The translations under genes were made by a program, and so were the position numbers. A DNA stretch of 64,000 nucleotides from a virus. Lineage: Duplodnaviria; Heunggongvirae; Uroviricota; Caudoviricetes. Positions 14,845 through 33,086 of the stretch are shown here, piece after piece; positions within the stretch are counted from its first letter, which is position 1; every line of letters starts with the position of its first letter. The stretch is from the IMG/VR virus record IMGVR_UViG_3300037067_004979, positions 10,733 through 74,732 of that record; one strand, 5' to 3'. Under the pieces are notes generated by a model. That model was not told the origin of the DNA, searched no databases, and saw only the letters and a program-made list of their open reading frames with translations.

Positions 14845-15027
14845 ATGGCTTGTGGGTATATTTTCCCTAATTACAAGCACTATATGGTAATATGTGATAA
14901 CTGTTTTGATGTGTGGAGTAATAATAGGTTATCCAAGGGGAGAGATCACTTCTTTAGAAATTTTAGGAGAATACCAACCATTGAGGAATACAAGAGATAC
15001 CGATTGCTTGATAGTTTAAGAGGATGA
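14845..15027 (+). CDS. small zinc-ribbon protein (MML-tail family)
   Basis: Start moved to ATG 14845 after AGGGGAAAG; CxxC...CDNCF; C-term EEYKRYRLLDSLRG. Confidence 0.45.
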   Translation: MACGYIFPNYKHYMVICDNCFDVWSNNRLSKGRDHFFRNFRRIPTIEEYKRYRLLDSLRG

Positions 15028-15275
15028 CTAAATTAGATAGAGTGTTATTTGCCTACTACAGGTATCACACAAACAGTCACAGAGAAACTGGTATGTGTAT
15101 ATGCTGTGATGCAAGGTGTAAGAATAACAACATCATGTTTTGTGAGAGTTGTCTCAATATCTATCTAACATTCAGGCAATCACTCAAAAAAAGTGAGCTA
15201 TATACCTTAGCTAAAGCCAGCAGTGATTTTGCTGACTTCAAGTATAAGCTAATGATGCTGAGGTTAAAAGCATAA
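15024..15275 (+). CDS. small zinc-ribbon protein (MML-tail family)
   Basis: CICCDARC...MFCESCL; C-term KLMMLRLKA. Confidence 0.5.
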   Translation: MTKLDRVLFAYYRYHTNSHRETGMCICCDARCKNNNIMFCESCLNIYLTFRQSLKKSELYTLAKASSDFADFKYKLMMLRLKA

Positions 15276-15529
15276 TGGATATTGATATTGCTAGATTAGC
15301 TAGAGCTGTATATTATCATTATAATCAAACATCATATGAAAAGATCAAAGAGTGCGTTGTTTGTGGTAAGGATGTAGCTTCTAATATGATCTTTTGTTCA
15401 GAACATGATAAACAGTGGGAGGATTTTAAGCATTATTCTCTTGGTTTGGAAGATACCTATGCTATGTTAGCTTCATCAGAATCTGAGGATGAGTATATTA
15501 GAAACCTAATGATGAGGGTAATGAGATGA
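15275..15529 (+). CDS. small zinc-ribbon protein (MML-tail family)
   Basis: CVVCGKDV...FCSEHD; C-term IRNLMMRVMR. Confidence 0.5.
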   Translation: MDIDIARLARAVYYHYNQTSYEKIKECVVCGKDVASNMIFCSEHDKQWEDFKHYSLGLEDTYAMLASSESEDEYIRNLMMRVMR

Positions 15530-15601
15530 TAGAGGATTTATGTATCTGTATATTTTTGTTAGTGCCTTGTTTTATCATAGCATTTATATTTTTTTGGCAG
15601 G

Positions 15602-15796
15602 ATGATATATAGATCAATCCTGAGAATCAAGAGAATTCATGAGGTATATCTATTCAGTAGTAAGATACTAGAAGAGGATATTAATGAATATTGTCTCTTG
15701 CCACCATTTAGATATATGGTAGATAGACATGATATACCATTAGAGGATTTTGCTAAGACTGAGAGAATATTATACAGGATGAGAAATAGCATATGA
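15602..15796 (+). CDS. small hypothetical protein, paralog of 15812
   Basis: Shares LLPPFRYMVDRHDIPLEDFAKTERILYRMRNSI-type C-terminus with next ORF. Confidence 0.4.
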   Translation: MIYRSILRIKRIHEVYLFSSKILEEDINEYCLLPPFRYMVDRHDIPLEDFAKTERILYRMRNSI

Positions 15797-15811
15797 GGAT
15801 CTACTAATAAG

Positions 15812-16084
15812 ATGTTTAGTATATTTATTATGATTATTTTTTCTATCATGGTAATTTGTTCAATTCCTTTTATAGTGACTGGTTTTATCAAAATTCATGA
15901 GTGTAATAAGGACTTAAAGAGAAATGAAGAGGTATATGATTACAGAGTAAGGATGATAAAAAAAGATTATGAGGAGTTTCTTCTTCTGCCAAGTTATGAT
16001 AAGATGTTGGAGGATAGAGACACACCCGTAGATGGTTTTGCCATAAGGGAAAGAATGCTGCATAGGATGAGAAAGAGTGTATGA
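15812..16084 (+). CDS. small protein with N-terminal TM helix, paralog of 15602
   Basis: LLLPSYDKMLEDRDTPVDGFAIRERMLHRMRKSV parallels previous ORF. Confidence 0.4.
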   Translation: MFSIFIMIIFSIMVICSIPFIVTGFIKIHECNKDLKRNEEVYDYRVRMIKKDYEEFLLLPSYDKMLEDRDTPVDGFAIRERMLHRMRKSV

Positions 16085-16368
16085 GTATCTGTGAAGATAT
16101 CCACTGCCCAGCCTGTTATTCAGTGAGTGGAGACCATGCAACTTATGAAATAGTACCAAAGTATACCTGTGGGACAATCTGGTGTGTGGGTGAGTGTATT
16201 ACTGGTGAGGCTGGTAACAGACTACAGTGCTGTTATCTATGTAGAAAGAGAGGCAGGTGTGATGAGTATGCACTGGTATATAAGGGTAGTGGACTAGAGG
16301 GTATCATGAGAACAAGAGCTATCAGAAAACACATAAGGAGATACTATAGAGATAATGAGTATATGTGA
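16081..16368 (+). CDS. Cys-rich small protein (CC-x-L-C subfamily)
   Basis: CPACYS...CGTIWCVGEC...CCYLCRKRGRC. Confidence 0.5.
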   Translation: MSICEDIHCPACYSVSGDHATYEIVPKYTCGTIWCVGECITGEAGNRLQCCYLCRKRGRCDEYALVYKGSGLEGIMRTRAIRKHIRRYYRDNEYM

Positions 16369-16621
16369 TGATATTAGGTGTCCCTGTGGTTATGATGTGC
16401 ATGGTATCTCTAGGTATGATCTTCACCCAAAATATGTAGATGATACATTACGATGTGATGAGTCTTGCCCCGATTCAAAGGATCATTTGTATGCATGCTG
16501 TTATCTATGTGATAGCAGAGATAAATGCAGTGTATTTACAGCTACCTTTGGTGGTCTTGAGGGTATAATAAGAGAAAAAAAGATCCGAGATCATCTGAAG
16601 GAACACTATGGTAAGTCCTGA
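16355..16621 (+). CDS. Cys-rich small protein (CC-x-L-C subfamily), tandem paralog
   Basis: MSICDDIRCPCGY...CCYLCDSRDKC; same N-terminus MSIC(E/D)DI as previous. Confidence 0.5.
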   Translation: MSICDDIRCPCGYDVHGISRYDLHPKYVDDTLRCDESCPDSKDHLYACCYLCDSRDKCSVFTATFGGLEGIIREKKIRDHLKEHYGKS

Positions 16622-16694
16622 GTATAGCTCAGTCTGGTAGAGCACTTGGCCTGGGACCAAGGGGTCGTTGGTTCGAATCCAACTACTCAGACCA
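16618..16694 (+). tRNA. tRNA-Pro (anticodon UGG), CCA encoded
   Basis: Cloverleaf read by hand: acceptor CTGAGTA/TACTCAG, D-arm GCTC-AGTCTGGTA-GAGC, anticodon arm CTTGG-CCTGGGA-CCAAG, T-arm GTTGG-TTCGAAT-CCAAC, ACCA 3' end. Confidence 0.75.
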
Positions 16695-16721
16695 AATAGA
16701 TGTTTGTTGTATAATGTAATT

Positions 16722-16982
16722 ATGCCAATAATAAAATTCTTTAGTAGTGATCTAGGATGCAGGATGGAGGATAATTCATCCTGTGAGTATAACACTGACA
16801 CTGGTGAGCTCATCTGTGCTGAGGAGTGTGATAGAATAACTGATAGTGATAACAATCACATCTGTTGTTTATTTTGTGGTAAATTTCCCTGTAAGGGATG
16901 GGATGAACCACTTGGAGCTATTATGATTAAGAACAATGCAATGAAGAAGATAGGTTATTGCATTGAGGAGAAACAACAGTGA
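16722..16982 (+). CDS. Cys-rich small protein
   Basis: Start trimmed to ATG 16722 to avoid tRNA; CEYNTDTGELICAEEC...CCLFCGKFPC. Confidence 0.4.
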   Translation: MPIIKFFSSDLGCRMEDNSSCEYNTDTGELICAEECDRITDSDNNHICCLFCGKFPCKGWDEPLGAIMIKNNAMKKIGYCIEEKQQ

Positions 16983-17278
16983 GTTGTGAGATCTGTGGTA
17001 GTCCTGATAAATTTAAGATCTGTTCATTTACCAGTGGAATCCGTTCAAATAGTTTGTATCATATCTTAGATCTGAAATCAGTAAATAACATGAATAGTGA
17101 GATTACTATACACCACAAGTTTTGCTCAGAACATCTAATTGAATTTTATCGTATGGAACTCATATTAAATGGGTTAAGAGATAATAACCTCCCTGTTGTG
17201 GGTGGTTGTAGGAGATGTAAGGATATACTAAAAAATTTATTTTCTGAGAGGGGACATGATATTACCAATCTACTCTGA
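16979..17278 (+). CDS. small zinc-ribbon protein
   Basis: CEICGSPDKFKIC...CSEH...CRRCKD. Confidence 0.45.
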   Translation: MSCEICGSPDKFKICSFTSGIRSNSLYHILDLKSVNNMNSEITIHHKFCSEHLIEFYRMELILNGLRDNNLPVVGGCRRCKDILKNLFSERGHDITNLL

Positions 17279-17446
17279 GATTATAGATATAATCATAGAG
17301 AGGAGGTTACCACTCCCCATGAATTGCAGTGGGAAAACAAATCATAACATGATGATGCTTCATCTCTGGTTTAACTCACTCATTGCAAGAGACAGGATTG
17401 TTTATCTGGATAGGAATGGTTATATACAGGAGGTTATGTTATAGAT

Positions 17447-17731
17447 ATGATTAAAGAATTAAGGGATTATATTGATATTTTCTTAAAAGTTGAAGAATTA
17501 GAGAATCAAGCAAGAACAGCAACTTCAGAGCTATATGGTATTCGTAATAAGACGTTCAAATTACTACAGGAAATAGGACACTCTGTTGCAATCTGTGTTG
17601 ATAATAAAGTTATTGTGCTTCAATCAGAGGGGACTTCCTCTGTAAAAGTCACTATTCACTACAGTGAGGATGAGGCTATCAAAAAATTAATGTTGGAGAA
17701 ACTGAATGACAAGAATCTGCCCAAAGTGTAA
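17447..17731 (+). CDS. small coiled-coil protein with LMLEKL C-terminal helix
   Basis: No Cys; C-term AIKKLMLEKLNDKN parallels ORF 18938. Confidence 0.45.
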   Translation: MIKELRDYIDIFLKVEELENQARTATSELYGIRNKTFKLLQEIGHSVAICVDNKVIVLQSEGTSSVKVTIHYSEDEAIKKLMLEKLNDKNLPKV

Positions 17732-17987
17732 GACAATTCTGTTTAGGGATGGCAAAAATACATATCATTGTATTGGTTGCTCTCTCAATGGTTCATACAT
17801 TGATATGGAGAGGCAGGCAATACAGATAAGAGATAGGGTAGAGAGACATGCCATCAAGGTCGAGTGTGTTAGGTGTGGTGTGAGAAAGGTACTCAATAAG
17901 GAGATATCCTGCTCTACACTAATCAATAATAACTCCAGATTTATCTGTCATGATTGCCAGAGTATTATCAGAATTGGTAGAAGATAA
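17706..17987 (+). CDS. small zinc-ribbon protein
   Basis: CPKCKT...CIGC...CVRCG...CHDCQ. Confidence 0.45.
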   Translation: MTRICPKCKTILFRDGKNTYHCIGCSLNGSYIDMERQAIQIRDRVERHAIKVECVRCGVRKVLNKEISCSTLINNNSRFICHDCQSIIRIGRR

Positions 17988-18358
17988 TGAGAATATACGC
18001 CAAGTTTAGTGAGATACATAATGTAGAGGTAAATGTGTCACATGTTGGATCATTCCACATGCCAGATTTATTGAAGATCCCTGGCGCTGAGATCACAGTT
18101 ATCAAGTGTAATAAATTTAATATAACCAAGGATAATAAGTATAATCCTAAGATTGTTGGTGATTTAATCAAACACATGAATTATAGATGGCATAGGGTTA
18201 AAGTTAAACTGTGTATTCCTGGTACCAGGTGTACTCTCACATACTCATCAGAGAGACTAATGGCAAGTGAGGTGAAGGCACTTGGGTTAGAGCCAATTGA
18301 ATCTGCTATTCTCAAGGAAGAGCAGTATGCCATGTTTGGAGCTATATCAGGTGGGTAA
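17987..18358 (+). CDS. hypothetical protein
   Basis: 123-aa ORF, no motif. Confidence 0.4.
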   Translation: MRIYAKFSEIHNVEVNVSHVGSFHMPDLLKIPGAEITVIKCNKFNITKDNKYNPKIVGDLIKHMNYRWHRVKVKLCIPGTRCTLTYSSERLMASEVKALGLEPIESAILKEEQYAMFGAISGG

Positions 18359-18533
18359 TTCTAGTGAGATAATCCTAATGATGCGTGCACAGTTAGACAG
18401 ATTACTGATTATCACTGGTGAGCTTGACATTAATCTGAGTGCTAGTGATTCTGTCTATGATGATATCATTCCATCTGTGGAAGCCATAAGAAGAGAACTG
18501 GCATCCATAGAGAGAGTCATCAGTAATGTATGA
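18297..18533 (+). CDS. hypothetical small protein
   Basis: 78-aa ORF, overlaps previous; weak. Confidence 0.3.
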   Translation: MNLLFSRKSSMPCLELYQVGNSSEIILMMRAQLDRLLIITGELDINLSASDSVYDDIIPSVEAIRRELASIERVISNV

Positions 18534-18611
18534 TACCATTGGCTTTATAATCTGGATTATTGTCTTTGTGGTTATTCTTGTGGTGTCTGCTATAGTTGGG
18601 AGGTCAAGCAG

Positions 18612-18896
18612 GTGAACTACGACAGAATAAGAAAGTTAGCATCAATTATAGTGGATTATTGTGAGGATCAATACCATACTGTTAAATATGATGGTAGATG
18701 TAGAGTGTGTGATGTGCTTATAGAACACGAATGTGTGTATTGCTGTAACACATGTTGGGAAACTTATTTTGAAAGTGGTATTTCCTTGATTGGGTGGGAT
18801 CCATCAACAGACTCCCTAATTAATTTCTATAGAAGTTTTAGAAATCTGTCTGATGAAGAAATCAGGTTGAAATTAATGCTAGGATCACTAAGGTAA
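18612..18896 (+). CDS. small zinc-ribbon protein (MML-tail family)
   Basis: GTG start after GGGAGG; CRVCDV...CVYCCNTCW; C-term IRLKLMLGSLR. Confidence 0.5.
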   Translation: MNYDRIRKLASIIVDYCEDQYHTVKYDGRCRVCDVLIEHECVYCCNTCWETYFESGISLIGWDPSTDSLINFYRSFRNLSDEEIRLKLMLGSLR

Positions 18897-18912
18897 GTTG
18901 TTTTTTGATATA
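18895..18912 (+). promoter_or_regulatory. conserved promoter motif GTTGTTTTTTGATATAAT
   Basis: Extended -10 copy; followed by GGAGGATTT RBS. Confidence 0.5.
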
Positions 18913-18937
18913 ATTATCATGTTTGGAGGATTTAACA

Positions 18938-19270
18938 GTGTTTAGAGAGAAATATCATGAGGTAAAAGCCATTGACGAAGAGGTAAAAAACATACAAAAA
19001 GAGATTGTTTCTTTTCTTGCCAAAACCCAGGCTAAATATTCTGATATGCAGATAGAGCTTCGTAAGAAAACTGGTGAACTTATCATGAAGAGAGGGGCTC
19101 TAATTGAATCCCTTGAGAAACTTGGTACAAATGTCTTTATTGAGGATGGTGACAAGAAGGTTATGATTACCTTCTTTACCAATAAGACTGGCAAGAAATC
19201 TGTGTTCTTTAATGAGGGAATTACCCCAGAGGAAGCAGATAGACAACTCATGCTGGAGAATCTAAAGTAG
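18938..19270 (+). CDS. small coiled-coil protein with LMLENLK C-terminus
   Basis: GTG 18938 sits 8 nt after GGAGGA (same RBS spacing as other genes after this promoter type); C-term ADRQLMLENLK. Confidence 0.45.
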   Translation: MFREKYHEVKAIDEEVKNIQKEIVSFLAKTQAKYSDMQIELRKKTGELIMKRGALIESLEKLGTNVFIEDGDKKVMITFFTNKTGKKSVFFNEGITPEEADRQLMLENLK

Positions 19271-19272
19271 AG

Positions 19273-19575
19273 ATGAAAACATACTTTGGGATAATTGATG
19301 ATATGGGCATAGAGAGTTTCATTGATCTTGAGGGTCTAAAGAGGGAGGATATGCTGAGGGCCCTCAAGAATGAGAAAAAATATAAGATGGCCTCTACCAT
19401 AAACTATCTATTACTCAGAGCAAGAATGAATCCACACAGGCACTCTCAGGTATACTGTGTCACTCTGAGTGATGGCCTTGCTAAGAAGATGAATAGCATG
19501 ATAGAGCGTGGTTTATATATGGAAGCTGTTAGGTTTCTTGGAAAGCATGACATAGAGATAGTAAAGATCAAATGA
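19273..19575 (+). CDS. hypothetical protein
   Basis: 100-aa ORF. Confidence 0.4.
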   Translation: MKTYFGIIDDMGIESFIDLEGLKREDMLRALKNEKKYKMASTINYLLLRARMNPHRHSQVYCVTLSDGLAKKMNSMIERGLYMEAVRFLGKHDIEIVKIK

Positions 19576-19793
19576 AGAAATCCGAGTGTGAGTTTGCTGT
19601 GTATTGCCCATTTGGTAATGATAGATACTGTGCTGGGATACCACATAAAACATATCACTGTTTTGAACCCAAAGCAAGTCATCTATTCTGTACTGATCAG
19701 TGTCATGTTAGGGGCGAGGTTATTAGTAATTTTGGCGAGTTTAGGGCTCTGATACTTAGACGCAAGGTGTTGGCATATCTTGAGAAAGCATAG
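19572..19793 (+). CDS. Cys/His-rich small protein
   Basis: CEFAVYCPFGNDRYCAG...HCFEP...CTDQCH. Confidence 0.45.
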   Translation: MKKSECEFAVYCPFGNDRYCAGIPHKTYHCFEPKASHLFCTDQCHVRGEVISNFGEFRALILRRKVLAYLEKA

Positions 19794-20079
19794 GATCATG
19801 TGTTATATCTGCGGTAAGCAGGAGTCTGAGTTTGTTGTATATAGAGACGACGAGATGTTATTCTTCTATTACCCACATAAAACCTACCTCCTATGTAAGA
19901 AGTGTGCTGTGTTGGAGAGGCTGACAAATTCCACATACACCATGTATAAGATACGCAGCATAAGAAATGTTGAGGAACACTCCAAGTGGATTCGTAAGGC
20001 TGTTGTCTATGTTATTATAGAGAATAGAAAACACGTGAAGAAACTCATTAGAGCCTGGGGGATCGATGTCAGGAAGTAA
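19780..20079 (+). CDS. small zinc-ribbon protein
   Basis: CYICGKQE...LCKKCAV. Confidence 0.45.
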   Translation: MRKHRIMCYICGKQESEFVVYRDDEMLFFYYPHKTYLLCKKCAVLERLTNSTYTMYKIRSIRNVEEHSKWIRKAVVYVIIENRKHVKKLIRAWGIDVRK

Positions 20080-20182
20080 GTGCCCAGTCTGTAATAACTA
20101 TTGTAGTGATCCTGGTGGTGTATGTGTTTATTATTGTTGTAATCATGAACAAACCTGTTGTCTGGTCTGTGATCATTTTTAA
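20066..20182 (+). CDS. Cys-rich micro-protein (38 aa, 10 Cys), not in ORF track
   Basis: MSGSKCPVCNNYCSDPGGVCVYYCCNHEQTCCLVCDHF; contains CC-L-V-C motif of the local family; competes with overlapping ORF 20106-20324. Confidence 0.35.
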   Translation: MSGSKCPVCNNYCSDPGGVCVYYCCNHEQTCCLVCDHF

Positions 20183-20329
20183 GAGAGTTGCTGCAAAGAA
20201 ACTTAGGGGACACTGTGGTCTTCTTCAGGGTGGCCTCTACAAGAAGGTATTTGAAACATATAATATCACTGATTATTGTTTTCCCCTGAAAAACCCAAAG
20301 AGCAAGAGAGAGCTTAGTAAGTAGTATTA

Positions 20330-20347
20330 ATTGTTTTTTGGTATAAT
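20330..20347 (+). promoter_or_regulatory. conserved promoter motif TTGTTTTTTGGTATAAT
   Basis: Extended -10 copy followed by GGAGGATTT RBS. Confidence 0.5.
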
Positions 20348-20366
20348 TTCAAGTGGAGGATTTCAA

Positions 20367-21083
20367 ATGATTGAATTAACGCCAATTGAGAAAAAAATAC
20401 TGAGTGTATTTAAGGCTAGGGGAGCAGATGATGCTCTTAACATTGTTAAAGCACTAAAACAGAAACCAATCTACTATCAGGTGAGTGGCCTGAGACAGGA
20501 ATATAACCTAAGATTTGTTAAGGCTCTGATGAAGACATCCAGTCCAGCTGGAGCCAATGAGTACATCATATACTCCAATGGTGATTTGGGTAGTTACCAC
20601 AATGAAAAATACTTCTCAGGTTCGTTTACTGTGGGTGGATATCACAGAATCTATAATGGTTCTAATATCTCAGCTATTGAGACACCCAGCTGGGTATCTT
20701 CCTGCTTTGGCAAGACTGTTTCTGATGAGATCATTCAATACATAACAGATAATCTAAAAAGAGAGCAGGTTGTGGGAAGTCTGATTAGTAGAATTTGTGC
20801 AGGTTTAATTAAGAATATGGGTGAGGAGGATTGGGGATACACAGTGTTTAAGTATCTCATGACTGATGAGCATCTAACTGCACTGGATCTAACACTAGAG
20901 AATCTAATTCAACCTAATAAGAAATATGGTGCGCGTGACCTACAGGAGTATATCAGTGATATACTTAAGGGATACATCAATGATAACTTTGAGAACTACC
21001 TATCTGGGGACAGGTCATTTATGAATGTATCTCTGTCAGAGTGTTTGAGAAAATCAATGATGCTGAGTTTACTAAGAAGGTAG
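20367..21083 (+). CDS. hypothetical protein
   Basis: Start placed at ATG 20367 after GTGGAGGATTTCAA; 238 aa. Confidence 0.5.
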   Translation: MIELTPIEKKILSVFKARGADDALNIVKALKQKPIYYQVSGLRQEYNLRFVKALMKTSSPAGANEYIIYSNGDLGSYHNEKYFSGSFTVGGYHRIYNGSNISAIETPSWVSSCFGKTVSDEIIQYITDNLKREQVVGSLISRICAGLIKNMGEEDWGYTVFKYLMTDEHLTALDLTLENLIQPNKKYGARDLQEYISDILKGYINDNFENYLSGDRSFMNVSLSECLRKSMMLSLLRR

Positions 21084-21100
21084 ATATTTTTTGATATAAT
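21083..21100 (+). promoter_or_regulatory. conserved promoter motif ATTTTTTGATATAAT
   Basis: Extended -10 copy; GGAGGATTT RBS; ATG 21121. Confidence 0.5.
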
Positions 21101-21120
21101 TAAAAAATGGAGGATTTATT

Positions 21121-22152
21121 ATGAAACCATCACAAGTACTGGAGGCAATGGCTGTCTCCTACAAGAACAACGGACCACGTATCATTCTCATTGGTAGCCC
21201 CGGCACTGCAAAGACAAGTCTGGTAAATCAGCTGCCAGCATACATGAAGAAACCCAATCTTCCTGTATACACATTCCAGGCAACACTCTATGCACCTGAT
21301 GAGGTAAAAGGTTTACCCACTCTTGTTACCAAGTCTGATGGTAGGCAAGAGGCTGTATTCCTTCCGTTTCAGGATATGCCATCTGCACCGGAGGGTATAC
21401 TCAACATTGATGACCTGCCACATGCACCGACAGCTACACAGAATGCCTTTATGAGACTGATTCTTGAAAACATCTGTGGGGCATGGAATCTGGGTGGTAT
21501 CAGACCATTTGCCACAGGAAACCGGTCAAGTGATCGAGCTGGTGCAAAGGATCTGCAATCTGCAATGGCCAACAGGTTTACCAGAATAGAGGTAGACATC
21601 AACTATGAGGATTGGAGATCCTGGGCAATAGGACAGAACATACGACCAGAGATCATATCATTTCTTGGTGCTCCCTATGGAGCAGAGTGGCTCAACAATG
21701 ACAAGTTTGATCCTGGTAGGCAGGTCAATCCCACCCCAAGGTCATGGGAGTTTGCCTCAAGGTGGTTTGAGGCCTTCAAGGGACAGGGTGAGGTGCTTCA
21801 TGAGTGTCTGAATGGATGCATTGGTGGAGCGGCTACATCAAAGTTCATGGGCTGGTTGAAGGTCTACTCTGAGTTGCCAGATCTTAATCTGATCATGCAG
21901 GGTGCTAAGACATACCCTGAAAAACTTGACATCTTCTATGCCTGCATATCTGGTCTGGTACAACTAGCCAGAAACTCAACAAAGAGAGCACAGGCTTTCC
22001 AGACTCTGGTTGATTATGCCACCACCATACCTGATAAGTATATTGAGATGGGTGCCATGCTCAGTAAAGACCTATTTCTTTTGGATGAGAAGGTCTTTAC
22101 CAAGTGCAACATCAGCAAGTGGCAAAACAGATATGAGGATGTAATTCTCTAA
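21121..22152 (+). CDS. MoxR-like AAA+ ATPase
   Basis: Walker A LIGSPGTAKTS, Walker B LNIDDL, sensor/arginine finger region; size 343 aa typical of MoxR/CbbQ family; GC-richer than flanks. Confidence 0.7.
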   Translation: MKPSQVLEAMAVSYKNNGPRIILIGSPGTAKTSLVNQLPAYMKKPNLPVYTFQATLYAPDEVKGLPTLVTKSDGRQEAVFLPFQDMPSAPEGILNIDDLPHAPTATQNAFMRLILENICGAWNLGGIRPFATGNRSSDRAGAKDLQSAMANRFTRIEVDINYEDWRSWAIGQNIRPEIISFLGAPYGAEWLNNDKFDPGRQVNPTPRSWEFASRWFEAFKGQGEVLHECLNGCIGGAATSKFMGWLKVYSELPDLNLIMQGAKTYPEKLDIFYACISGLVQLARNSTKRAQAFQTLVDYATTIPDKYIEMGAMLSKDLFLLDEKVFTKCNISKWQNRYEDVIL

Positions 22153-22206
22153 TATTCCAACGCAGTCCATCATTCACATGGTGGACTGAATGGAGGATTA
22201 AAGAAA

Positions 22207-23373: not shown

Positions 23374-23386
23374 ATCCTCCATTAGT

Positions 23387-23434: not shown

Positions 23435-23446
23435 TGAGGAAATCAA

Positions 23447-25136: not shown

Positions 25137-25157
25137 TAAGATATCAATTGGAGGATT

Positions 25158-25697: not shown

Positions 25698-25700
25698 AAA

Positions 25701-25985
25701 ATGTTAAAGAAAATATCAAATGTGATCAAAGAGTACCAAGGTAGGAGGAGGAATTTTAAATCTCTGCAGTCTGAGTATCAAAAGAAATTGAATGTCCTGT
25801 TACAAGATACATCAATGGATATTCAATACAGGCTTCTCTTTATCTGTCGCATGCGCATAGAGAATGAGAAGTTATTTGACAGTTTGGATTTATCTGTTTT
25901 TCAGGAGATATATGAGCAATATGTCCTTGATAAGAAATTCTATGATGGTTGGCTTGCCTGGGTAAGAGAAAATAAACTCGTCTAG
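25701..25985 (+). CDS. hypothetical protein
   Basis: 94-aa ORF. Confidence 0.45.
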   Translation: MLKKISNVIKEYQGRRRNFKSLQSEYQKKLNVLLQDTSMDIQYRLLFICRMRIENEKLFDSLDLSVFQEIYEQYVLDKKFYDGWLAWVRENKLV

Positions 25986-26002
25986 ATGTTTTTTGGTATA
26001 AT
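25985..26002 (+). promoter_or_regulatory. conserved promoter motif GATGTTTTTTGGTATAAT
   Basis: Exact copy of motif at 14731. Confidence 0.55.
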
Positions 26003-26041
26003 ACAGAATATAAAAATATTTTAAAAGGAGGAATTTAGAAT

Positions 26042-26686: not shown

Positions 26687-26760
26687 AATTCCCAATCACA
26701 ACAAGATATTTGGGTAGGACAATAACAGTCCTACCCATTTTCTTTGTCTGTTGAGAACTA

Positions 26761-26778
26761 GATGTTTTGTGATATGAT
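26761..26778 (+). promoter_or_regulatory. variant of conserved promoter motif GATGTTTTGTGATATGAT
   Basis: Degenerate copy followed by ACGGAGGATTAG RBS. Confidence 0.4.
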
Positions 26779-26814
26779 ATATACATCTTAATAAAAAAAC
26801 GGAGGATTAGATAA

Positions 26815-27015
26815 ATGGCAAAGAAAGTACAGACACAGGAAACTGAGACCAAGACAAAGGCCATCAAGGTAGATATAACACAGATGGTAATAACTCACGC
26901 CTACCAGAGAAATTACAAAACTGGTTCAACTGGGTTCTTTGGCCAGGGAATGGATCCACAGACTGGAAAGAAGTATCAGATTCTCGGTTGTGTTGAGGTC
27001 AAACCGAAAGCATAA
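26815..27015 (+). CDS. small basic protein
   Basis: 66 aa, own promoter and terminator. Confidence 0.5.
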   Translation: MAKKVQTQETETKTKAIKVDITQMVITHAYQRNYKTGSTGFFGQGMDPQTGKKYQILGCVEVKPKA

Positions 27016-27035
27016 ATCAATTCAATTCATAATTT

Positions 27036-27068
27036 GGGGGAGTTGAAAGATATTCCCCCTTTTTATTG
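27036..27068 (+). terminator. rho-independent terminator
   Basis: GGGGGA-loop-TCCCCC followed by TTTTTATTGTT. Confidence 0.6.
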
Positions 27069-27069
27069 T

Positions 27070-28290
27070 TATTAAAAACTAGTCATATATGAACATCATA
27101 TTATATGAAGCTAATCATCCATCAATATAGACTCCAATCCAAATCAAATACGCAATATAAATGATGCCACAATAGCCAAGAGACACACACAAATACAAAA
27201 CCAATATAAACCTATATCAATAAAATGTGGGGCAAAAGAAAGATAGAACAAATGTATTAAACCTAGATACATGACAATATGATCAAATAAGAAGAGTACG
27301 ATTGAGACAGAATCAAACCAATTCAAAGCCAATTCAAAGTTGCTACCTCATCTCTCTGCCAACAGGTTCATATAAGACTATTTTTATCCAGGCGGACGGA
27401 GAAAGTACACTTTAGAACAAATGTATTATAATATTACCAGGTAGCAAATCGTATCCAAAACACGATCAATTATACAACAAATTTGCGCTCAGAATGACCA
27501 AGAATGATGCCGAAGTCATTTATTAATGATAGTATATTGATAAACACTTGTTCTATTAATCTTGAGCAAACGGGGCATTAAAAAGAACAAATACGTATGG
27601 ATGACTAGAACACTTGTATTATTCATATATGACTGTTTCTGAGACATCTTTATTGTAAAGCTGGAATTGGAATCAAATTCTATTCACGCCGTCAATGATA
27701 TAATATCAACAAATATGACTTTGTATTTGGTTAGAGAGTTCATTTATGACCATCAAAAGTTACTCAATTTGATCGTAATATTGCCAATTCCTAATTCAAG
27801 TATGTTTCTTTGACGCCACGAAGCTCAAGGATGATGCCGAGACAAGTTATGCGCTAGATTCTATTGGTGGATGAAATATATACTTATTTGCGCTCCAGAA
27901 GACCCTGATTAATAGCACAATTGTGTTGTCATATATGACTATTTGATCGTATCCTTATGTAAAGAAGCACACTTGTACTAGTTTGTTATAGAACAAATGG
28001 GCTAATTAGAACAGATGTGCTGTGTATCATTATGTAATGTAATTAACTAACTATCATATATGACATACATAATAACAAATATGGTTGGTTAATTAATACA
28101 TATATGACTATCTCTATGATATATGCTATATGACCATCATATATGACTGTCTTCCATGATTGTCTCATAACCCCCCATTATGTCAAATGCTTACTATATG
28201 ATATTCATATGTGACTATTGACCTGCAAGTCAGGGACTTACTTGAAAATTTTTTGACCTGAATTTATATCTGGGAACAATATATGATATC
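27070..28290. repeat. 1.2-kb non-coding divergent region with iterated motifs (TCATATATGACT x>=8; ACACTTGTA; AGAACAAATG)
   Basis: No ORF >62 aa; copies at ~27084, 27624, 27942, 28055, 28103, 28130, 28139, 28205; candidate origin/regulatory hub. Confidence 0.55.
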
Positions 28291-28544
28291 TATTGATGGT
28301 ACTCCTGTCGACTGTATTTTAGATATCTATGATACTTCTTGATGAATATTATGTGTGACAGTGGTTCAACACCCTCTAGTTTACCATCACATTTCTTTAT
28401 ATTTTTACATAGCATACAACACTTACACATATTTCTGTTGTGTATTTCCCAGACCACACAGCTAACAATACCATTCTCCATTCTATACCTACCATACATA
28501 CACCCCACTGATAGACAGTCTCTTGGATCGATTGGATTATTCAC
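28290..28544 (-). CDS. Cys-rich small protein (CC-M-L-C subfamily)
   Basis: CLSVGCMYG...CKCCMLCKNIKKC. Confidence 0.5.
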   Translation of the reverse strand: MNNPIDPRDCLSVGCMYGRYRMENGIVSCVVWEIHNRNMCKCCMLCKNIKKCDGKLEGVEPLSHIIFIKKYHRYLKYSRQEYHQ

Positions 28545-28557: not shown

Positions 28558-28818
28558 TCATGTTAATTTAGATCTACTGTATCTTCTATACTTGAGATAT
28601 TTTTGGGAGAACATTAGACGTGCTAGGGGTTCTACCATTGCTAGGATGTTATGTTCTCTATCACATTCCCCTATATTCCTACATATCAGACAGCACTTGC
28701 ATTGATCTTTTTCACTTGTATTCCATATCTCACAGCTAAAAATACTGTTATTCTTTCTTGTTTTTCCATACTTGCATCCAACTGAGATGCAATCATCTAT
28801 ACTAATTGGGCTCTTCAT
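28558..28818 (-). CDS. Cys-rich small protein, tandem paralog
   Basis: CISVGCKYG...CKCCLICRNIGEC. Confidence 0.5.
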   Translation of the reverse strand: MKSPISIDDCISVGCKYGKTRKNNSIFSCEIWNTSEKDQCKCCLICRNIGECDREHNILAMVEPLARLMFSQKYLKYRRYSRSKLT

Positions 28819-29098
28819 CTCTAACCCCCAGATATTTTTGTCTAAAGACTAGTAGCATCAGTGGATCAACATCACTCATTTTCCCAACAACATTCCTGTG
28901 CCAGTTGCATGTGTCATCACACAGCAAACAGCACCCAGTTATACTGTTCATTCTATTAGAAATAGTGGGGGGATAGACTTTAAATCCATCACCTCTTCTA
29001 CAAACCTTTCCACAGTCATGTAAAGTTTTCATACTTGGTATTAACTCACTGTGTGGGCATCTGAGAGATTCACAGTCCTCTCTTCTTATAAATCTCAT
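28802..29098 (-). CDS. Cys-rich small protein
   Basis: CESLRCPHS...CGKVC...CCLLCDDTC. Confidence 0.45.
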   Translation of the reverse strand: MRFIRREDCESLRCPHSELIPSMKTLHDCGKVCRRGDGFKVYPPTISNRMNSITGCCLLCDDTCNWHRNVVGKMSDVDPLMLLVFRQKYLGVRDEEPN

Positions 29099-29439
29099 CT
29101 CATGTTCTCAAGTATTATTATTTTTTTAAACTCATCAAATGATATATTAACTACTTCTTCCATACTCATCCTTGTTACTCTTATTAATATATGATATATC
29201 ACATTTATCTCATCCCTAAATATCCTAGCTAATTTATCATGACAATGCAAGTGCATTTGATATGGCCATGATGACATAAAATAATCTGATTTACGTATAT
29301 GCACCGGATTATTACAGTAAATACATATTTGATCATATGATAGTGGTTGAACACGAGCGGACATCTTTTGAGATATCAGATATTTCTTTATCTGTATGAA
29401 GTCATTGATATCAATCACTCTAACCCCCCATATTTCCAA
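29095..29439 (-). CDS. hypothetical protein
   Basis: 114 aa; C-term IIILENMR. Confidence 0.4.
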   Translation of the reverse strand: MEIWGVRVIDINDFIQIKKYLISQKMSARVQPLSYDQICIYCNNPVHIRKSDYFMSSWPYQMHLHCHDKLARIFRDEINVIYHILIRVTRMSMEEVVNISFDEFKKIIILENMR

Positions 29440-29671
29440 TCATCAAGACCCTTCTATAATCGGGATCTGTTGGTAGTATTCCTTTATTTCTATAGTCACC
29501 AATTGCTGATATAAAACTAAAGATCTCATTATTGTGCTTATGAAAACACTTTTTGCAGCTGTAGAAGACTCTATCATGATGACAGTCTCTACCACAGATA
29601 AGGCACCTGCGGAGAGGTACAGCCCTGGTAGTATGCTGCTGATATATACCTAGTAATATCTCAAATTTCAT
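29420..29671 (-). CDS. small zinc-ribbon protein (MML tail)
   Basis: CLICGRDCHHDRVFYSCKKCFHKH; C-term RRVLMIGNMGG. Confidence 0.5.
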   Translation of the reverse strand: MKFEILLGIYQQHTTRAVPLRRCLICGRDCHHDRVFYSCKKCFHKHNNEIFSFISAIGDYRNKGILPTDPDYRRVLMIGNMGG

Positions 29672-29882: not shown

Positions 29883-29957
29883 TGGTACCCCCGGCAGGAG
29901 TTGAACCTGCATTCTCTGTTTAGAAGACAGATGCTCTATCCACTGAGCTACGGAGGC
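29883..29957 (-). tRNA. tRNA-Arg (anticodon UCU), CCA encoded
   Basis: Reverse complement GCCTCCG-TA-GCTC-AGTGGATA-GAGC-A-TCTGT-CTTCTAA-ACAGA-GAAT-GCAGG-TTCAACT-CCTGC-CGGGGGT-A-CCA. Confidence 0.8.
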
Positions 29958-29962: not shown

Positions 29963-30214
29963 CTATCTTGACTCCAACTTTCCGAGCATTATTACTCTTC
30001 TGTATGTCTCATCATTTGGCAGTATTTGATATGAGTAATATAGATCGATTGCTGAGATAAACTTCCTTGCCTCATTACCATGAATAGCCCAACAGTCATT
30101 ACACATAAATATTGTTTGATCATCCCTACAGTATTTACCACAGACTGGGCAATCTTCTATTATCCCATAATAGTAGCATCTTCTATATATGTGTTGCAGT
30201 ATTGAGATATCCAT
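29963..30214 (-). CDS. small zinc-ribbon protein (MML tail)
   Basis: CPVCGKYCRDDQTIFMCNDCW; C-term RRVIMLGKLESR; close paralog of 29420. Confidence 0.5.
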   Translation of the reverse strand: MDISILQHIYRRCYYYGIIEDCPVCGKYCRDDQTIFMCNDCWAIHGNEARKFISAIDLYYSYQILPNDETYRRVIMLGKLESR

Positions 30215-30221
30215 GTATTTA

Positions 30222-30584
30222 CTAGATCCTCTTTCTGACAGGCCTTGTCTCCCTTACTGTTTTAGAGACCACCTTATTGGTTTCCTTAAATAAACCGGAT
30301 TGATAAAATCTGATTTCCTCACCACAAAATGGGCAGAATTTAATTTTCCTGGTTGAGGATTCATCATCAAAATAGGCATGACCAAGATATATCTCAATGA
30401 TTGGCTTGGGGTCTTCCATGGTGTCATAATAGGCACCAAAAGATACATGATGATCTGAATAGGCTTCCTCTAATTCATCACAGCAAAACTCCCTGGTCTT
30501 ATACTCTTCTAGGTAGGGTAGTTCCCTCTTGGATTTCCCTCCATCCATAACCTCTCTGATAACTCTATTGTATTCAAAAATCAT
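30222..30584 (-). CDS. hypothetical protein with C-terminal zinc ribbon
   Basis: CPFCGEE; RBS GAGGTGA; preceded by conserved promoter motif. Confidence 0.5.
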   Translation of the reverse strand: MIFEYNRVIREVMDGGKSKRELPYLEEYKTREFCCDELEEAYSDHHVSFGAYYDTMEDPKPIIEIYLGHAYFDDESSTRKIKFCPFCGEEIRFYQSGLFKETNKVVSKTVRETRPVRKRI

Positions 30585-30602: not shown

Positions 30603-30619
30603 ATTATATCAAAAACATC
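30603..30619 (-). promoter_or_regulatory. conserved promoter motif (minus strand) GATGTTTTTGATATAAT
   Basis: Reverse complement of + strand attatatcaaaaacatc; followed by GAGGTGA RBS and ATG of 30584. Confidence 0.5.
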
Positions 30620-30855
30620 TATTCACTTTTTCTCAGTTGGTTGAGCATGGCTAGCTGTATTAGTTCACTCTCAGATAAATTTTGTAGAGTGGTGCACTCT
30701 TCCAGTACATGATAATTATTTTTTATGACAAGCATGAATTTTCTCCAGCAATCATCACAGGCAAATACTCTTGGCATCTTAATACCACAGTATGGGCACT
30801 CAGTGTGATTAATGGGGCTTTTGCTAAGCATTTCACTTATTATTTCCCTGTACAT
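30619..30855 (-). CDS. small zinc-ribbon protein (MML tail)
   Basis: CPYCGIKMPRVFACDDCW; C-term LAMLNQLRKSE. Confidence 0.45.
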   Translation of the reverse strand: MYREIISEMLSKSPINHTECPYCGIKMPRVFACDDCWRKFMLVIKNNYHVLEECTTLQNLSESELIQLAMLNQLRKSE

Positions 30856-30878: not shown

Positions 30879-31130
30879 TCATTGTGTAAAGTTACTTATT
30901 ATTGCTTCCTGTATTGTGTAATAGGTTGGATTACCCTTTTCCAATTTTATTTGACTATCATAAGAATCAAGATGATATGTATGAGCTGATTCATACCTTA
31001 CGAAGGCTCTCTCAAGCCAGATTATTCTCCCATCATTTAAGTTGTGTGGGAGAAAACAAAACACCGTATAACCAACTTGTAATCTCATTACCTTTTTGTT
31101 TATATCTTCTTTACATTTACCAATTATCAT
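30879..31130 (-). CDS. hypothetical small protein
   Basis: 83 aa. Confidence 0.4.
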   Translation of the reverse strand: MIIGKCKEDINKKVMRLQVGYTVFCFLPHNLNDGRIIWLERAFVRYESAHTYHLDSYDSQIKLEKGNPTYYTIQEAIISNFTQ

Positions 31131-31402
31131 TTTAATATCCCTATCTTTATAAACATCTTAATTTTCTGTATGAGTGATTGTGATTTACCTTCATATTGAC
31201 TTTTCTTGCACACTATAAAAAACATAAATTTTGTGTCTTTATCAACCTCTCCGGAAAAAAAACAGTAATCTGTGTCATTATCTATGTGACATTTAACACA
31301 ACAGATATACTTTTTACTTTGTCCACATAAGTGAGTTCGACAATGTAACATATTTTTTTGTGGACAAATAATTTGACATTGTTTTTCTGTGGGTACAAAC
31401 AT
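31127..31402 (-). CDS. Cys-rich small protein
   Basis: CQIICPQ...CRTHLCG...CCVKCH. Confidence 0.45.
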   Translation of the reverse strand: MFVPTEKQCQIICPQKNMLHCRTHLCGQSKKYICCVKCHIDNDTDYCFFSGEVDKDTKFMFFIVCKKSQYEGKSQSLIQKIKMFIKIGILK

Positions 31403-31428
31403 ATTATATAACCTCTAGTTAATATGAG

Positions 31429-31515
31429 TGGCGGAGTCGGTGAGATTTGAACTCACGATGCTGTTAGCATGACCGCTTTCAAGACGGCTCCGATAAACCA
31501 CTCCGGCACGACTCC
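31429..31515 (-). tRNA. tRNA-Ser (anticodon UGA), type II, CCA encoded
   Basis: Reverse complement GGAGTCG...GCCGT-CTTGAAA-GCGGT, long variable arm CATGCTAACAGCATC, T-arm GTGAG-TTCAAAT-CTCAC, CGACTCC-G-CCA. Confidence 0.75.
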
Positions 31516-31590
31516 TGGTAGGGAGTGCAAGATTCAAACTTGCGTCTCCGAGATATAAGCTCGGTATCCTAATCACTGAACTAACTCCCC
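31516..31590 (-). tRNA. candidate tRNA-Ile (anticodon UAU), CCA encoded; weak D-stem
   Basis: Reverse complement GGGGAGT..CCGAG-CTTATAT-CTCGG..GCAAG-TTTGAAT-CTTGC-ACTCCCT-A-CCA; anticodon loop has U33 and A37; D-stem has 2 G-U pairs. Confidence 0.55.
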
Positions 31591-31598
31591 CCATCAAG

Positions 31599-32387
31599 CT
31601 AGTCTGTTGGTAATACAATAGGCATGCCCTGTGGTACAACAACAATCTTTGCATCAGGAGCAAGCTTATTAATGTATAGATACTGTAGATACTCCCTTGT
31701 CAATGTTGATTGTAATACCTTGATGGCCTCTGCCTGTCCCTTGGCCTGAGCAACAGCCTGTTCTGCCTCTACTCTTATTTGGAGTAACTTATTTTCGGCC
31801 TTTAAGACATCCTGTGCAGCAGCTACCTTTGATTCAATTGCAGCAGAGAATTCCTTGGAAAAGGCAAAATCAGTAAGACTGACAGTCTCAACAACTATGT
31901 GTCTTAGTGCTAGACGCTCAGTTATAGCCTTTGCAATATCATCCTTAACCTGGGCTCTCTTGGTAATCATCTCCTCTGCAGGATACTTTGCAGTGATTTC
32001 CTTTAGTGTTTCCTGAATCATGTTGTGCCCAACTGTATTCATATAACTAACACCCAGTTGATTGTAGACATCAATGGCATAGTTCTTATCAAGATGATAG
32101 TTTATCTTTATGGTAGTTTTTACTTCCTGAAGGTCCCTGGTACCAGCAGATGATTCTGGTTCCTCATATAGCTGTGTTTGAAGTGATATGAGCTGTAAGC
32201 CCTCAAACAATGGCATCTTAACGGAGTATCCAGCCTCTCTCACACCAACAGCCTTACCACCCTGAAGAACAATATTTAGGTGTCCTGCAGGTGTGGTTAT
32301 GATACCACCAACAAGGGTAACAATGAGTAATATAACTATTACCACTGCCCCAAAAATGATTAAACCGACCTTAGTATCTTCGTCCAT
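31599..32387 (-). CDS. SPFH/band-7 (prohibitin/HflK/C-like) membrane protein
   Basis: N-terminal TM helix; SPFH core ...IVLQGGKAVGVREAGYSVKMPLFEGLQLISLQTQ...; C-terminal coiled coil AEQAVAQAKGQAEAIKVLQ; GC-richer. Confidence 0.7.
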   Translation of the reverse strand: MDEDTKVGLIIFGAVVIVILLIVTLVGGIITTPAGHLNIVLQGGKAVGVREAGYSVKMPLFEGLQLISLQTQLYEEPESSAGTRDLQEVKTTIKINYHLDKNYAIDVYNQLGVSYMNTVGHNMIQETLKEITAKYPAEEMITKRAQVKDDIAKAITERLALRHIVVETVSLTDFAFSKEFSAAIESKVAAAQDVLKAENKLLQIRVEAEQAVAQAKGQAEAIKVLQSTLTREYLQYLYINKLAPDAKIVVVPQGMPIVLPTD

Positions 32388-32557
32388 TTTTCTTTTCTCC
32401 TATTTATTTTATTTGTTGCTAGTTCTGGTTAGAGACTTGTTGTATGTATGAAAATAACACCTCCTGAAATTTTTTACAGTAATTAATCAATTCAGCCACA
32501 TATAAAAAATTTTACAAAACATAAAAAATATGATACAATAAATTCTGTCCTTCCAAC

Positions 32558-32821
32558 CTAATATAATCTATTTAACATTATTGTCTTCTTTATTTTTCTA
32601 TTAGATATACCCTCTCTACATAATCTAATTATCTCATACCTTTCACTCTGAAATTCACTAGATAAATCCAAGTATATACCAACACAATCATTACACAAGA
32701 TAAAAGCTCTTTCTCTTGATACTTTACACAGACAAAAACAGCAAACACTCCTATCAGAAGTTGGTGATGAATAATTAGTCATTGACCTAATCATATTAAT
32801 ATATTTATCTATACTACTCAT
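32558..32821 (-). CDS. small zinc-ribbon protein (MML tail)
   Basis: CCFCLCKVSRERAFILCNDCV; C-term KKTIMLNRLY. Confidence 0.5.
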   Translation of the reverse strand: MSSIDKYINMIRSMTNYSSPTSDRSVCCFCLCKVSRERAFILCNDCVGIYLDLSSEFQSERYEIIRLCREGISNRKIKKTIMLNRLY

Positions 32822-33086
32822 TATTTAGCCTATGCAGCATACATTTCTTTACTATATCATCAATACTATATCTTTCTAGTAGACCCTCAATACTAGTAGT
32901 ACCAGGAAATAACACAATATTAAGATCTCTTAGATATTTATTTCTGCAACTACCGCAGACAGGGTATCTTGTTAATACAAAACTATTATTCTTCTCACAC
33001 AGTATACAAACATCAGGTGGATCTATCTCTCTATTTGTGGCAAAGAAATCTTTTATCTTTTCTAGAACTTCTCTAAAAGACATCAC
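32814..33086 (-). CDS. small zinc-ribbon protein (MML tail)
   Basis: CILCEKNN...CGSCRNKY; C-term VKKCMLHRLNNE. Confidence 0.5.
   Translation of the reverse strand: MMSFREVLEKIKDFFATNREIDPPDVCILCEKNNSFVLTRYPVCGSCRNKYLRDLNIVLFPGTTSIEGLLERYSIDDIVKKCMLHRLNNE

Follow-up and report, generated by a model that had tools for sequence, protein, structure and literature searches.

Small orphan proteins, which make up the bulk of what is still unexplored in phage coding capacity, have provided numerous inhibitors that act on host machinery or on defence systems. In Bacillus phage SPO1, some 24 small early genes form a host-takeover module in which strong promoters recur many times. Here we describe an island of small genes from an uncultured tailed phage. 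It lies in a 64,000-nucleotide section (the window; positions 10,733 to 74,732 of IMG/VR record IMGVR_UViG_3300037067_004979) of a contig of ~106 kb, and coordinates are those of the window unless a relative is named. Like the SPO1-type takeover modules, the island consists of dozens of small orphan genes, in short operons under one host-type promoter with a strong Shine-Dalgarno (SD) sequence, and is lineage-specific and fast-evolving. In having many small genes behind copies of a host-type promoter, it shows one of the two features by which host-takeover modules are recognised, the other being early expression with an effect on host functions. However, half of the products are Cys-rich and fall into two paralogous families, and the island lies inside the head module. 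Moreover, 21 of its products share a C-terminal helix motif, hereafter the tail, and none is described for SPO1.

Clusters of small orphan early genes and zinc-ribbon mini-proteins are already familiar in phages. A tail shared by unrelated architectures and kept in a diverged relative is apparently undescribed: in the full-text literature we found no published account of one terminal helix on at least six unrelated architectures of one genome. The locus can be viewed as a natural experiment within a single genome, in which about two dozen putative metal-binding heads, together with unrelated proteins, carry the same 13-residue helix, kept where most similarity has been erased.

The island and its two cysteine-rich families

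The island (14.7-33.1 kb) holds ~48 small, tightly packed genes over ~19 kb, arranged in two blocks, one on the plus strand (14779 to 27015) and one on the minus strand (33529 to 28290). It splits the head module. An intein-containing prohead protease (13059-14651; PF14890), whose intein carries an endonuclease-like insert, lies on one side, and a scaffold-like gene (33666-34451) and the gene for an HK97-type major capsid protein (34474-35847; PF17236) lie on the other. The gap between protease and scaffold is 19 kb in the window, compared to 1-3 kb in the relatives L005, L009 and L034, which identifies a hypervariable accessory island, a hotspot of accessory-gene gain in the head module. No nucleotide match to the window was found among deposited phages.

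Within each block the genes occupy one strand, with stop codons overlapping the next starts. An SD-like GGAGG or GAGG match is located 6-18 nucleotides (nt) 5′ of the start codon in 31 of the 48 genes, and in six paralogue pairs conservation amounts to 55%, 61% and 43% at codon positions 1, 2 and 3. Judged from the packing, the SD matches, the codon-position bias and the orthologues in a second phage described below, the island open reading frames (ORFs) behave as genes.

A preliminary description of the sequence had counted some 30 small Cys-rich ORFs here, and they were recovered: 27 island products of ≤120 amino acids (aa) contain 4-10 Cys, and two others (15275-15529 and 29095-29439) have 3 Cys plus His ligands. 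The remaining 45 kb of the window hold only 2-4 small Cys-rich ORFs of that class. All-against-all BLAST and alignments placed 24 products in two Cys-rich families, A and B, of 12 members each. These match the two Cys patterns originally quoted, CxxC...CxxC in 12 proteins and CC-x2-C-x3-7-C in 12. The proposal of a lineage-specific burst of one family was correct as to lineage, with a single outside homologue, but not as to the number of families: in a profile-profile comparison of A and B only the 17-column tail aligns, with a probability of 0.6%, so that A and B are not one family. Nor are the tandem copies near-duplicates, as the pairs are only 38-45% identical. Families C (17447/18938) and D (15602/15812) are two Cys-poor pairs. 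Over families A-D together, Cys represents 6.9% of residues.

Family A proteins are built from an N-terminal helix, a CxxC-x10-15-CxxC element, ~35 residues with helices, and the tail. Of the four putative ligand positions, three are Cys without exception across the 12 members and the fourth is either Cys or His; the heads are probably metal-binding. An AlphaFold2 model was obtained for the 83-aa product of 29963-30214 (minus strand) from an alignment of the 12 paralogues, with a pLDDT of 82.8 and a pTM of 0.67. Helices span residues 3-15, 39-61 and, for the tail, 68-81. The knuckles are C22xxC25 and C38xxC41, with β-bridges at residues 21 and 28, and the second knuckle opens the helix that starts at residue 39, directly after C38. 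Family A is thus predicted to form a treble-clef-like knuckle in a three-helix bundle, in line with the treble-clef-like finger suggested beforehand.

Foldseek searches of this model against the PDB and viral models returned nothing at E < 1. Sequence-profile matches of family A in the PDB were non-significant or generic only (zinc fingers and ribosomal zinc ribbons), the weak ones comprising uS14, eS27a/eS31, bL32, the ClpX ZBD and McsA. Family A does resemble this class of small treble-clef and zinc-ribbon proteins (ribosomal, ClpX ZBD, McsA) in its two CxxC knuckles 10-15 residues apart, the second of which starts a helix, but every profile match to the class is non-significant or generic. 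An HNH endonuclease was considered and rejected: only phrog_25983 and phrog_35854 matched, at E 0.012 and 0.097 and over the knuckles alone, and no HNH-family Pfam entry matched at E ≤ 0.1. The phage and plasmid TraR/DksA (PF01258) and P2 Ogr/P4 Delta (PF04606) proteins are also of 70-100 aa with a helix-zinc finger-helix layout, and such RNA-polymerase-binding C4 regulators offer a plausible analogy for the action of family-A heads. However, neither Pfam family matched at E ≤ 0.1 in a scan of seven representatives (four from family A and three from family B), and their knuckle spacing is x17 and x22, compared to x10-15 in family A.

The 38-aa, 9-Cys ORF at 20066-20182, which had been included in the original set, is doubtful. 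It overlaps an unassigned 72-aa ORF (20106-20324) and looks like a recombination remnant or a gene fragment. Over 30 nt it is 83% complementary to the first zinc knuckle (30122-30151) of the family-A gene 29963-30214, on the opposite strand; the protein strings of this repeat are CPVCNNYC and CPVCGKYC respectively.

Family B proteins carry 7-10 Cys in the arrangement C-x4-C...C...CC-x2-C-x3-7-C, from which we infer a metal-binding domain. The family profile has no match in the PDB. On the plus strand, the first two members, 16081-16368 (95 aa, 10 Cys, CCYLCRKRGRC, ending GLEGIMRTRAIRKHI) and 16355-16621 (88 aa, 9 Cys, CCYLCDSRDKC), are 39% identical (E 7e-21). The third, 16764-16982 (72 aa, CCLFCGKFPC), was started at the first ATG after the tRNA-Pro gene (16618-16694), because a longer ORF from 16668 would overlap the latter. 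The pair 23742-23999 (85 aa, 9 Cys) and 23996-24256 (86 aa, 8 Cys, CCVFCKEKC) is 41% identical. They are followed by 24667-24888 (70-73 aa, 10 Cys, CCVFCGKEKC) and 24870-25136 (88 aa, 10 Cys, CCYLCKSDRKC). On the minus strand, 28290-28544 (84 aa, CCMLCKNIKKC, ending EPLSHIIFIKKYHRYLKY) and 28558-28818 (86 aa, CCLICRNIGEC) are 45% identical (E 4e-29), and 28802-29098 encodes a 98-aa member with CCLLCDDTC. Two members are weak. The 73-aa product of 19572-19793 (plus strand, 6 Cys, ending ALILRRKVLAYLEKA) belongs by its Cys pattern only: its 59-bit profile score is circular, the protein being part of the training alignment, and it has no BLAST link to family B at E < 0.05. The 91-aa product of 31127-31402 (minus strand, 9 Cys, CCVKC) likewise has a circular score, of 41 bits, and a sole BLAST link of 13 residues to 24667 (E 0.03).

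A C-terminal helix shared by unrelated proteins

Aligned on its Met-Leu pair, the tail is a 13-residue motif with the consensus [DE][DE]Φx[KR]xΦMLxxL, ending 0-8 residues before the stop codon. Its first part is a capping box ([ST]x[DE]E), after which comes an amphipathic helix with the pattern Φx[KR]xΦMLxxL. The 21 island proteins that carry it are all 12 members of family A, three of the 12 in family B (23742, 23996 and 24667), both of family C, both of family D, a 238-aa orphan and a 43-aa mini-protein. The tail is therefore found on at least six unrelated N-terminal architectures, families A and B and at least four more.

A shared C-terminal helix motif, extending to Cys-free proteins, had been proposed in the preliminary description, and its occurrence is far beyond chance. 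The pattern [ILMVAC][ML]L..L lies within the last 14 residues in 13 of 47 island genes and in none of 50 genes outside. Among the controls, it was found in 2 of 282 off-frame ORFs and in 0 of 301 internal 14-residue windows, and shuffled proteins gave 0.14 on average and never more than 2. Scored leave-one-out with a 13-column matrix, the 21 proteins reach 3.8-25.5 bits, compared to 1.7 bits for the best of 278 off-frame ORFs and 0.9 for the best outside gene. All six Leu codons are in use at the conserved Leu columns and flanking codons vary, which indicates that selection acts at the level of the protein rather than on a signal in the DNA. However, clustering and alignment showed that the tail, although shared, is not universal: nine family-B members end in another helix, of the G/P-L-x2-ΦΦ...K-Y-L type (type-2 tail), as seen in 16081, 16355, 24870, 28290, 28558 and 28802, and the weak members 19572 and 31127 also lack the first type. 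The consensus motifs of β-clamp-binding peptides, PIP boxes, SsrA-like tags, MinD membrane-targeting helices and the FtsZ C-terminal peptide do not fit the tail and were set aside.

The plus-strand members of family A start with 14779-15027 (82 aa, CMAC...CDNC, tail EEYKRYRLLDSLRG, 9.8 bits), the start of which was set to agree with database protein P0004. Then come 15024-15275 (83 aa, tail DFKYKLMMLRLKA), with BLAST links to 15275, 32558 and 29420, and 15275-15529 (84 aa, CVVC...CSEH, tail DEYIRNLMMRVMR), which scores 11.2 bits from outside the training set. Further along are 18612-18896 (94 aa, tail EEIRLKLMLGSLR, 23.5 bits) and two genes related at E 1e-10, 23447-23749 (100 aa, tail EEIYKSILTRSLSGG) and 24243-24551 (102 aa, tail EKLVELCMLKKLG). 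On the minus strand, 29095-29439 is a divergent member of uncertain start (CIYC...HLHCH, tail DEFKKIIILENMR, 10.6 bits), and 29420-29671 (83 aa, tail PDYRRVLMIGNMGG) is 38% identical to the modelled protein 29963-30214 (E 1e-17). The remaining members are 30619-30855 (78 aa, tail SELIQLAMLNQLRKSE), 32558-32821 (87 aa, tail RKIKKTIMLNRLY) and 32814-33086 (89-90 aa, tail DDIVKKCMLHRLNNE, 19.0 bits). In family B the tail reads PEIKLAMMLRNLS in 23742-23999 (25.5 bits), PKIKKAMMLEALN in 23996-24256 (22.8 bits) and QEIKRMMMLCQLS in 24667-24888 (14.1 bits).

The other tail-bearing proteins are all encoded on the plus strand. Family C comprises a 94-aa, Cys-free helix/strand protein (17447-17731, tail DEAIKKLMLEKLN, 24.8 bits leave-one-out) and a protein of ~110 aa without Cys (18938-19270, tail EEADRQLMLENLK), whose GTG start at 18938 lies 7 nt after GGAGGA, downstream of the promoter copy at 18897-18914. 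BLAST links the former to family-A protein 32814 (E 7e-4) in a 29-residue match at the C-terminal end, where the tail is. In family D, the 64-aa, Cys-poor product of 15602-15796 (tail DFAKTERILYRMR, 4.2 bits) is 39% identical (E 2e-13) to the 90-aa product of 15812-16084, which has an N-terminal hydrophobic helix of membrane type and a tail, GFAIRERMLHRMR, scoring 11.9 bits from outside the training set. The 238-aa orphan (20367-21083, tail ECLRKSMMLSLLRR, 14.8 bits) is not Cys-rich. It has no Pfam or PHROG match and retrieved only itself among 5.8 billion clusters. Finally, the 43-aa mini-protein (24552-24683) is composed of a hydrophobic helix, LLFVISIISFIVQCY, a basic linker and the tail ENREAMLRKLGGDD (6.1 bits leave-one-out), leaving no room for a folded domain besides the tail.

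Database searches yielded one diverged relative of the island. Pfam and PHROGs gave nothing significant for ten representatives or the other small island genes, apart from the HD, SPFH and AAA+/VWA genes described below, and both family profiles retrieved only the phage's own proteins from 5.8 billion indexed protein clusters. A HMMER search with family A over 1.84 billion representatives returned its own members, unrelated multi-zinc-finger repeats matching in the knuckles only, and one true outside homologue, P0041. The latter is encoded on contigs L087/L088 of a second phage, whose protease is 70% identical to the window extein. There the protease is followed by genes in the order A, A, A, D (membrane-anchored), B, A, B, which corresponds to window 14779-16621. 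Between the small proteins and their counterparts in the window, identity is only 24-36%. Nevertheless the tail is present in five of the seven, at 17.9, 20.8, 9.1, 4.8 and 2.8 bits with the matrix trained on the window only. The orthologue of 15812-16084 (L088 4617-4850) retains both the transmembrane segment and a tail, ERMLSKLDD. With Cys ligands and tail kept at such low identity, the heads evolve fast.

More distant relatives (L008/L014, L002 and L003) encode small CxxC...CxxC proteins with looser ΦLΦxKKΦ endings and single family-B-like genes. Family hidden Markov models found no significant match in 450 kb of related phage loci, and the strict tail matrix found nothing in the capsid-anchored loci L002-L081 of the more distant relatives; outside the window, the only loci in which the tail was seen are L087/L088, together with L002, where it is weak. 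Scanning viral contigs with the protease as anchor gave no new relatives with the island, nor did a search with the AAA+ ATPase. Capsid relatives 48-81% identical occur in groundwater, lake and sediment metagenomes. The ~93-aa CxxC...CKKC protein of 19798-20079 looks homologous by eye to a 109-aa protein encoded just upstream of the scaffold gene in a 100-kb relative (L008 8342-8671), and it may be among the few island genes conserved as far as L008.

Possible roles of the shared helix

Our preferred explanation, which we judge about evenly balanced between right and wrong, is that the tail-bearing proteins are variable effector heads on a shared docking or assembly tail helix. A hypervariable accessory island inside the head module would be transcribed from about ten copies of one extended -10 promoter, and would supply small cytoplasmic proteins that bind metal, in two or more fast-evolving families unrelated to each other, along with several non-Cys proteins, two of them with membrane anchors. 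The variable heads would each recognise one of many different targets in the host or the phage. The tail helix, being constant, would provide a common docking or assembly element through which all heads reach one partner or associate among themselves, possibly at the membrane via the anchored members. The within-family range of isoelectric points, from 4.4 to 9.4, fits different targets better than one nucleic-acid-binding role. Both the anchor-plus-tail protein 24552-24683 and the transmembrane-anchored 15812-16084 argue for an autonomous module. The strongest arguments for such a module are the former protein and the partial distribution of the tail in family B, which is better explained by exchange of modules than by vertical descent. 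Should the helix be a docking tag, one tail-peptide pull-down could reveal a central hub, of host or phage origin, and the heads would constitute a panel of binders with different specificities.

Several points weigh against this explanation. The family-A model packs the tail as helix three into a compact bundle, where it may be a core structural element rather than a free docking surface. The docking partner is hypothetical, and a 13-residue motif cannot prove common descent or function. Metal binding, expression timing and translation are predictions from sequence. Structure prediction on representatives, confident for family A, was of low confidence for family B (23996-24256, pLDDT 47). Lastly, the canonical tail is found in one outside phage only, the distant relatives having the looser ending.

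The main rival explanation, conceivable if somewhat unlikely, is that the tail is purely structural and inherited, being the core-closing last helix of one ancestral small helical protein whose N-terminal parts diverged or were replaced, with no common partner. Its position as helix 3 of the family-A bundle and its presence in every family-A member agree with this, and the motif reads as a well-formed terminal helix, with a capping box and hydrophobic positions i, i+4, i+5, i+6 and i+9. However, there is no bundle for the helix to close in the 43-aa anchor-plus-tail protein or in the transmembrane-anchored proteins. Moreover, nine family-B members have another ending on the same Cys domain, and core packing does not usually demand a pair as specific as the invariant Met-Leu. 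If the role of the helix is structural alone, the families would still define two new small Cys-rich folds without relatives in current databases.

Unlikely, in our estimate, is a role of the tail as a phage-specific address tag, an autonomous helix routing more than 20 different heads (zinc-knuckle, multi-Cys and Cys-free proteins as well as membrane-anchored mini-proteins) to a single hub, be it a host protein or a hetero-oligomer of the tails. If true, this would be a combinatorial way of delivering or assembling effectors that is undescribed for phages.

We consider it quite improbable that the tail is a sorting or turnover signal, that is, a procapsid cargo-loading peptide for co-injection or a degron for timed proteolysis. 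The scaffold protein is devoid of the motif, the island has a promoter class of its own that is absent from structural genes, and membrane-anchored members are unlikely capsid cargo. The argument for such a signal is one of analogy and position: the motif is strictly C-terminal and present on unrelated proteins, and the island lies between prohead protease and scaffold/capsid genes in two phages. In addition, a MoxR-type AAA+ ATPase (21121-22152; Pfam AAA_5) and a DUF2201 metallopeptidase/VWA protein (22207-23373; Pfam DUF2201_N and DUF2201) are encoded on the plus strand inside the island, directly after the tail-bearing 238-aa protein. However, the relatives of this AAA+/VWA pair are CobS/CobT-like genes of unrelated T4-like phages, without Cys-rich or tail-bearing neighbours, and a link between the pair and the tail was rejected on this ground. 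The T4 capsid-targeting sequence and encapsulin cargo-loading peptides are likewise short terminal motifs on unrelated proteins near HK97-type head genes. The T4 signal is N-terminal and cleaved, whereas the tail is C-terminal; encapsulin peptides are Gly/Ser-rich extended segments and not capped helices, and the membrane-anchored members do not fit.

For family B, an identity as iron-sulfur proteins, WhiB-type regulators docking on the primary sigma factor, is likewise quite improbable. Wbl proteins are also small and have phage-encoded precedents, and five of the 12 family-B members (16081, 16355, 24870, 28290 and 28558) have exactly the Wbl core spacing, C-x2-C-x5-C, after distant Cys residues. 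Related contigs come from groundwater, lake and sediment, which we assume to be largely anoxic, and AlphaFold ignores cofactors and fails on family B. However, the last spacing is x3, x4, x7 or more in the other members, there are extra conserved Cys, and the G[VI]WGG turn (GVWGG in Wbl proteins) is absent, the residues past the last Cys being G/P-L-x-x-Φ. WhiB (PF02467) gave no match at E ≤ 0.1 for 16081, 23996 or 28558, and a Pfam scan of 24870 returned only an unrelated sub-threshold match, PBP_sp32 (E 0.097). The phage has a low G+C content, 36%, whereas Wbl proteins are actinobacterial, and eight conserved Cys suit two tetrahedral sites equally well.

That the motif is a by-product of a nucleotide signal at gene ends (ribosome-binding site, coupling element or promoter), or that the ORFs are not genes, is effectively refuted. 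Tight coupling often places the next gene's SD in the last codons, which explains endings such as ...GG and ...GGDD. However, the motif is encoded with six Leu codons and varied flanks, its distance to the stop ranges over 0-8 codons and that to the following start codon is not constant, and none of 278 off-frame ORFs contains it. Paralogue pairs are more conserved at codon positions 1 and 2 than at position 3, and both the motif and the Cys columns are kept in the second phage at 24-36% protein identity.

Promoters, host and neighbouring genes

Repeated promoters had been proposed for the island, and ten copies of an extended -10 promoter-like repeat, GATGTTTTT(T)GrTATAAT, were located, all within 14.6-33.6 kb. 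The promoter search gave 8 matches compared to 0.46 expected, and structural genes are without this promoter class. The plus-strand copies are at 14640-14657 (GATGTTTTTTGATATAAT, with the extended -10 TGnTATAAT), 14730-14747, 16698-16715 (weaker), 18897-18914, 20330-20347, 21083-21100, 25985-26002 and 26761-26778. On the minus strand, one copy (AGATGTTTTTGATATAAT, 30603-30620) precedes 30222-30584, and the other (33537-33554) precedes the HD-domain gene 33083-33529, the first gene of the minus block. Five copies are followed within 20-40 nt by GGAGGA and a start codon, and at a sixth (30603) a related GAGGTGA precedes the start. Since the conserved SD has to be in the transcript, the start site would be ~7 nt after the -10 element. 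At the 33537 copy, TATAAT lies 7 nt before the ATG, which would give a leaderless mRNA. In L088 (3880-3896), the first family-A gene apparently has TATAAT at the same distance from its ATG, which suggests leaderless mRNAs for both genes. Four strong intrinsic terminators close transcription units: a hairpin with a T-run at 23384-23420 (plus strand), after the VWA gene, and similar sites at 14687-14726, 26711-26737 and 27036-27059. In all, 16 terminator-like sites were found, compared to 8.3 ± 2.9 in shuffles, and these four are intergenic and on the coding strand. The island would be expressed early, by the host polymerase.

The host is probably bacterial. The promoter repeat is an exact extended -10 element (TGnTATAAT) with the SD inside the predicted leader, intrinsic hairpin terminators are present, and relatives encode bacterial-type DnaJ (DnaJ_bact) and Gad1. 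The NusG of a relative scores 104 bits to bacterial NusG and 28 bits to archaeal Spt5; this bacterial-type NusG/LoaP-like antiterminator lies among small zinc-ribbon genes in the 100-kb relative (L035/L008 2933-3439). Against a bacterial host, the only deposited-phage matches of the capsid protein are archaeal tailed viruses, at 26-29% identity, and a 68%-identical capsid gene is carried by a 4-kb contig (L081, JAZDMZ010000062.1) binned in a metagenome-assembled genome of Candidatus Aenigmatarchaeota. Either this binning is an artefact or the host assignment merits another look. The resemblance of the tail to [DE]xxΦxxxΦxxL[KR] raised the idea of an archaeal virus with an MIM1-type ESCRT-III helix binding an MIT domain, which needs an archaeal or eukaryotic Vps4/MIT partner. 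It was rejected as the main reading because of the TGnTATAAT elements with SD in the leader, the intrinsic terminators, and the bacterial-type NusG, Gad1 and DnaJ_bact of the relatives.

Besides the HD-domain protein, the island encodes an SPFH protein. Four tRNA genes (Pro-TGG, Arg-TCT, Ser-TGA and Ile-TAT; 16618-16694, 29883-29957 and 31429-31590) lie among the small genes, and in relatives L002 and L008, judging from ORF translations, tRNA genes may occupy the corresponding position. The protease contains an intein in L009 (484-aa ORF) and L034 (ORF of at least 439 aa) as well, and has an uninterrupted 190-191-aa form in L005 and L088. The 1006-aa protein of 4340-7360 has a DRAT-like ADP-ribosyltransferase domain at its C-terminus, and the next protein (7353-8549) has an anthrax-lethal-factor-like domain (PF07737 ATLF); from their position beside the head-protease gene, both could be virion-associated. 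The plus and minus gene blocks converge at a 1.27-kb non-coding gap (27016-28290). The palindrome (G)TCATATATGA(C) has 19 matches in the window, compared to 3.7 expected, nearly all of them in this gap (~9 sites there), which also contains three copies of TAGAACAAATGTATTA. The gap resembles an array of iterons or operators, and could be a replication origin or a region bound by a regulator.

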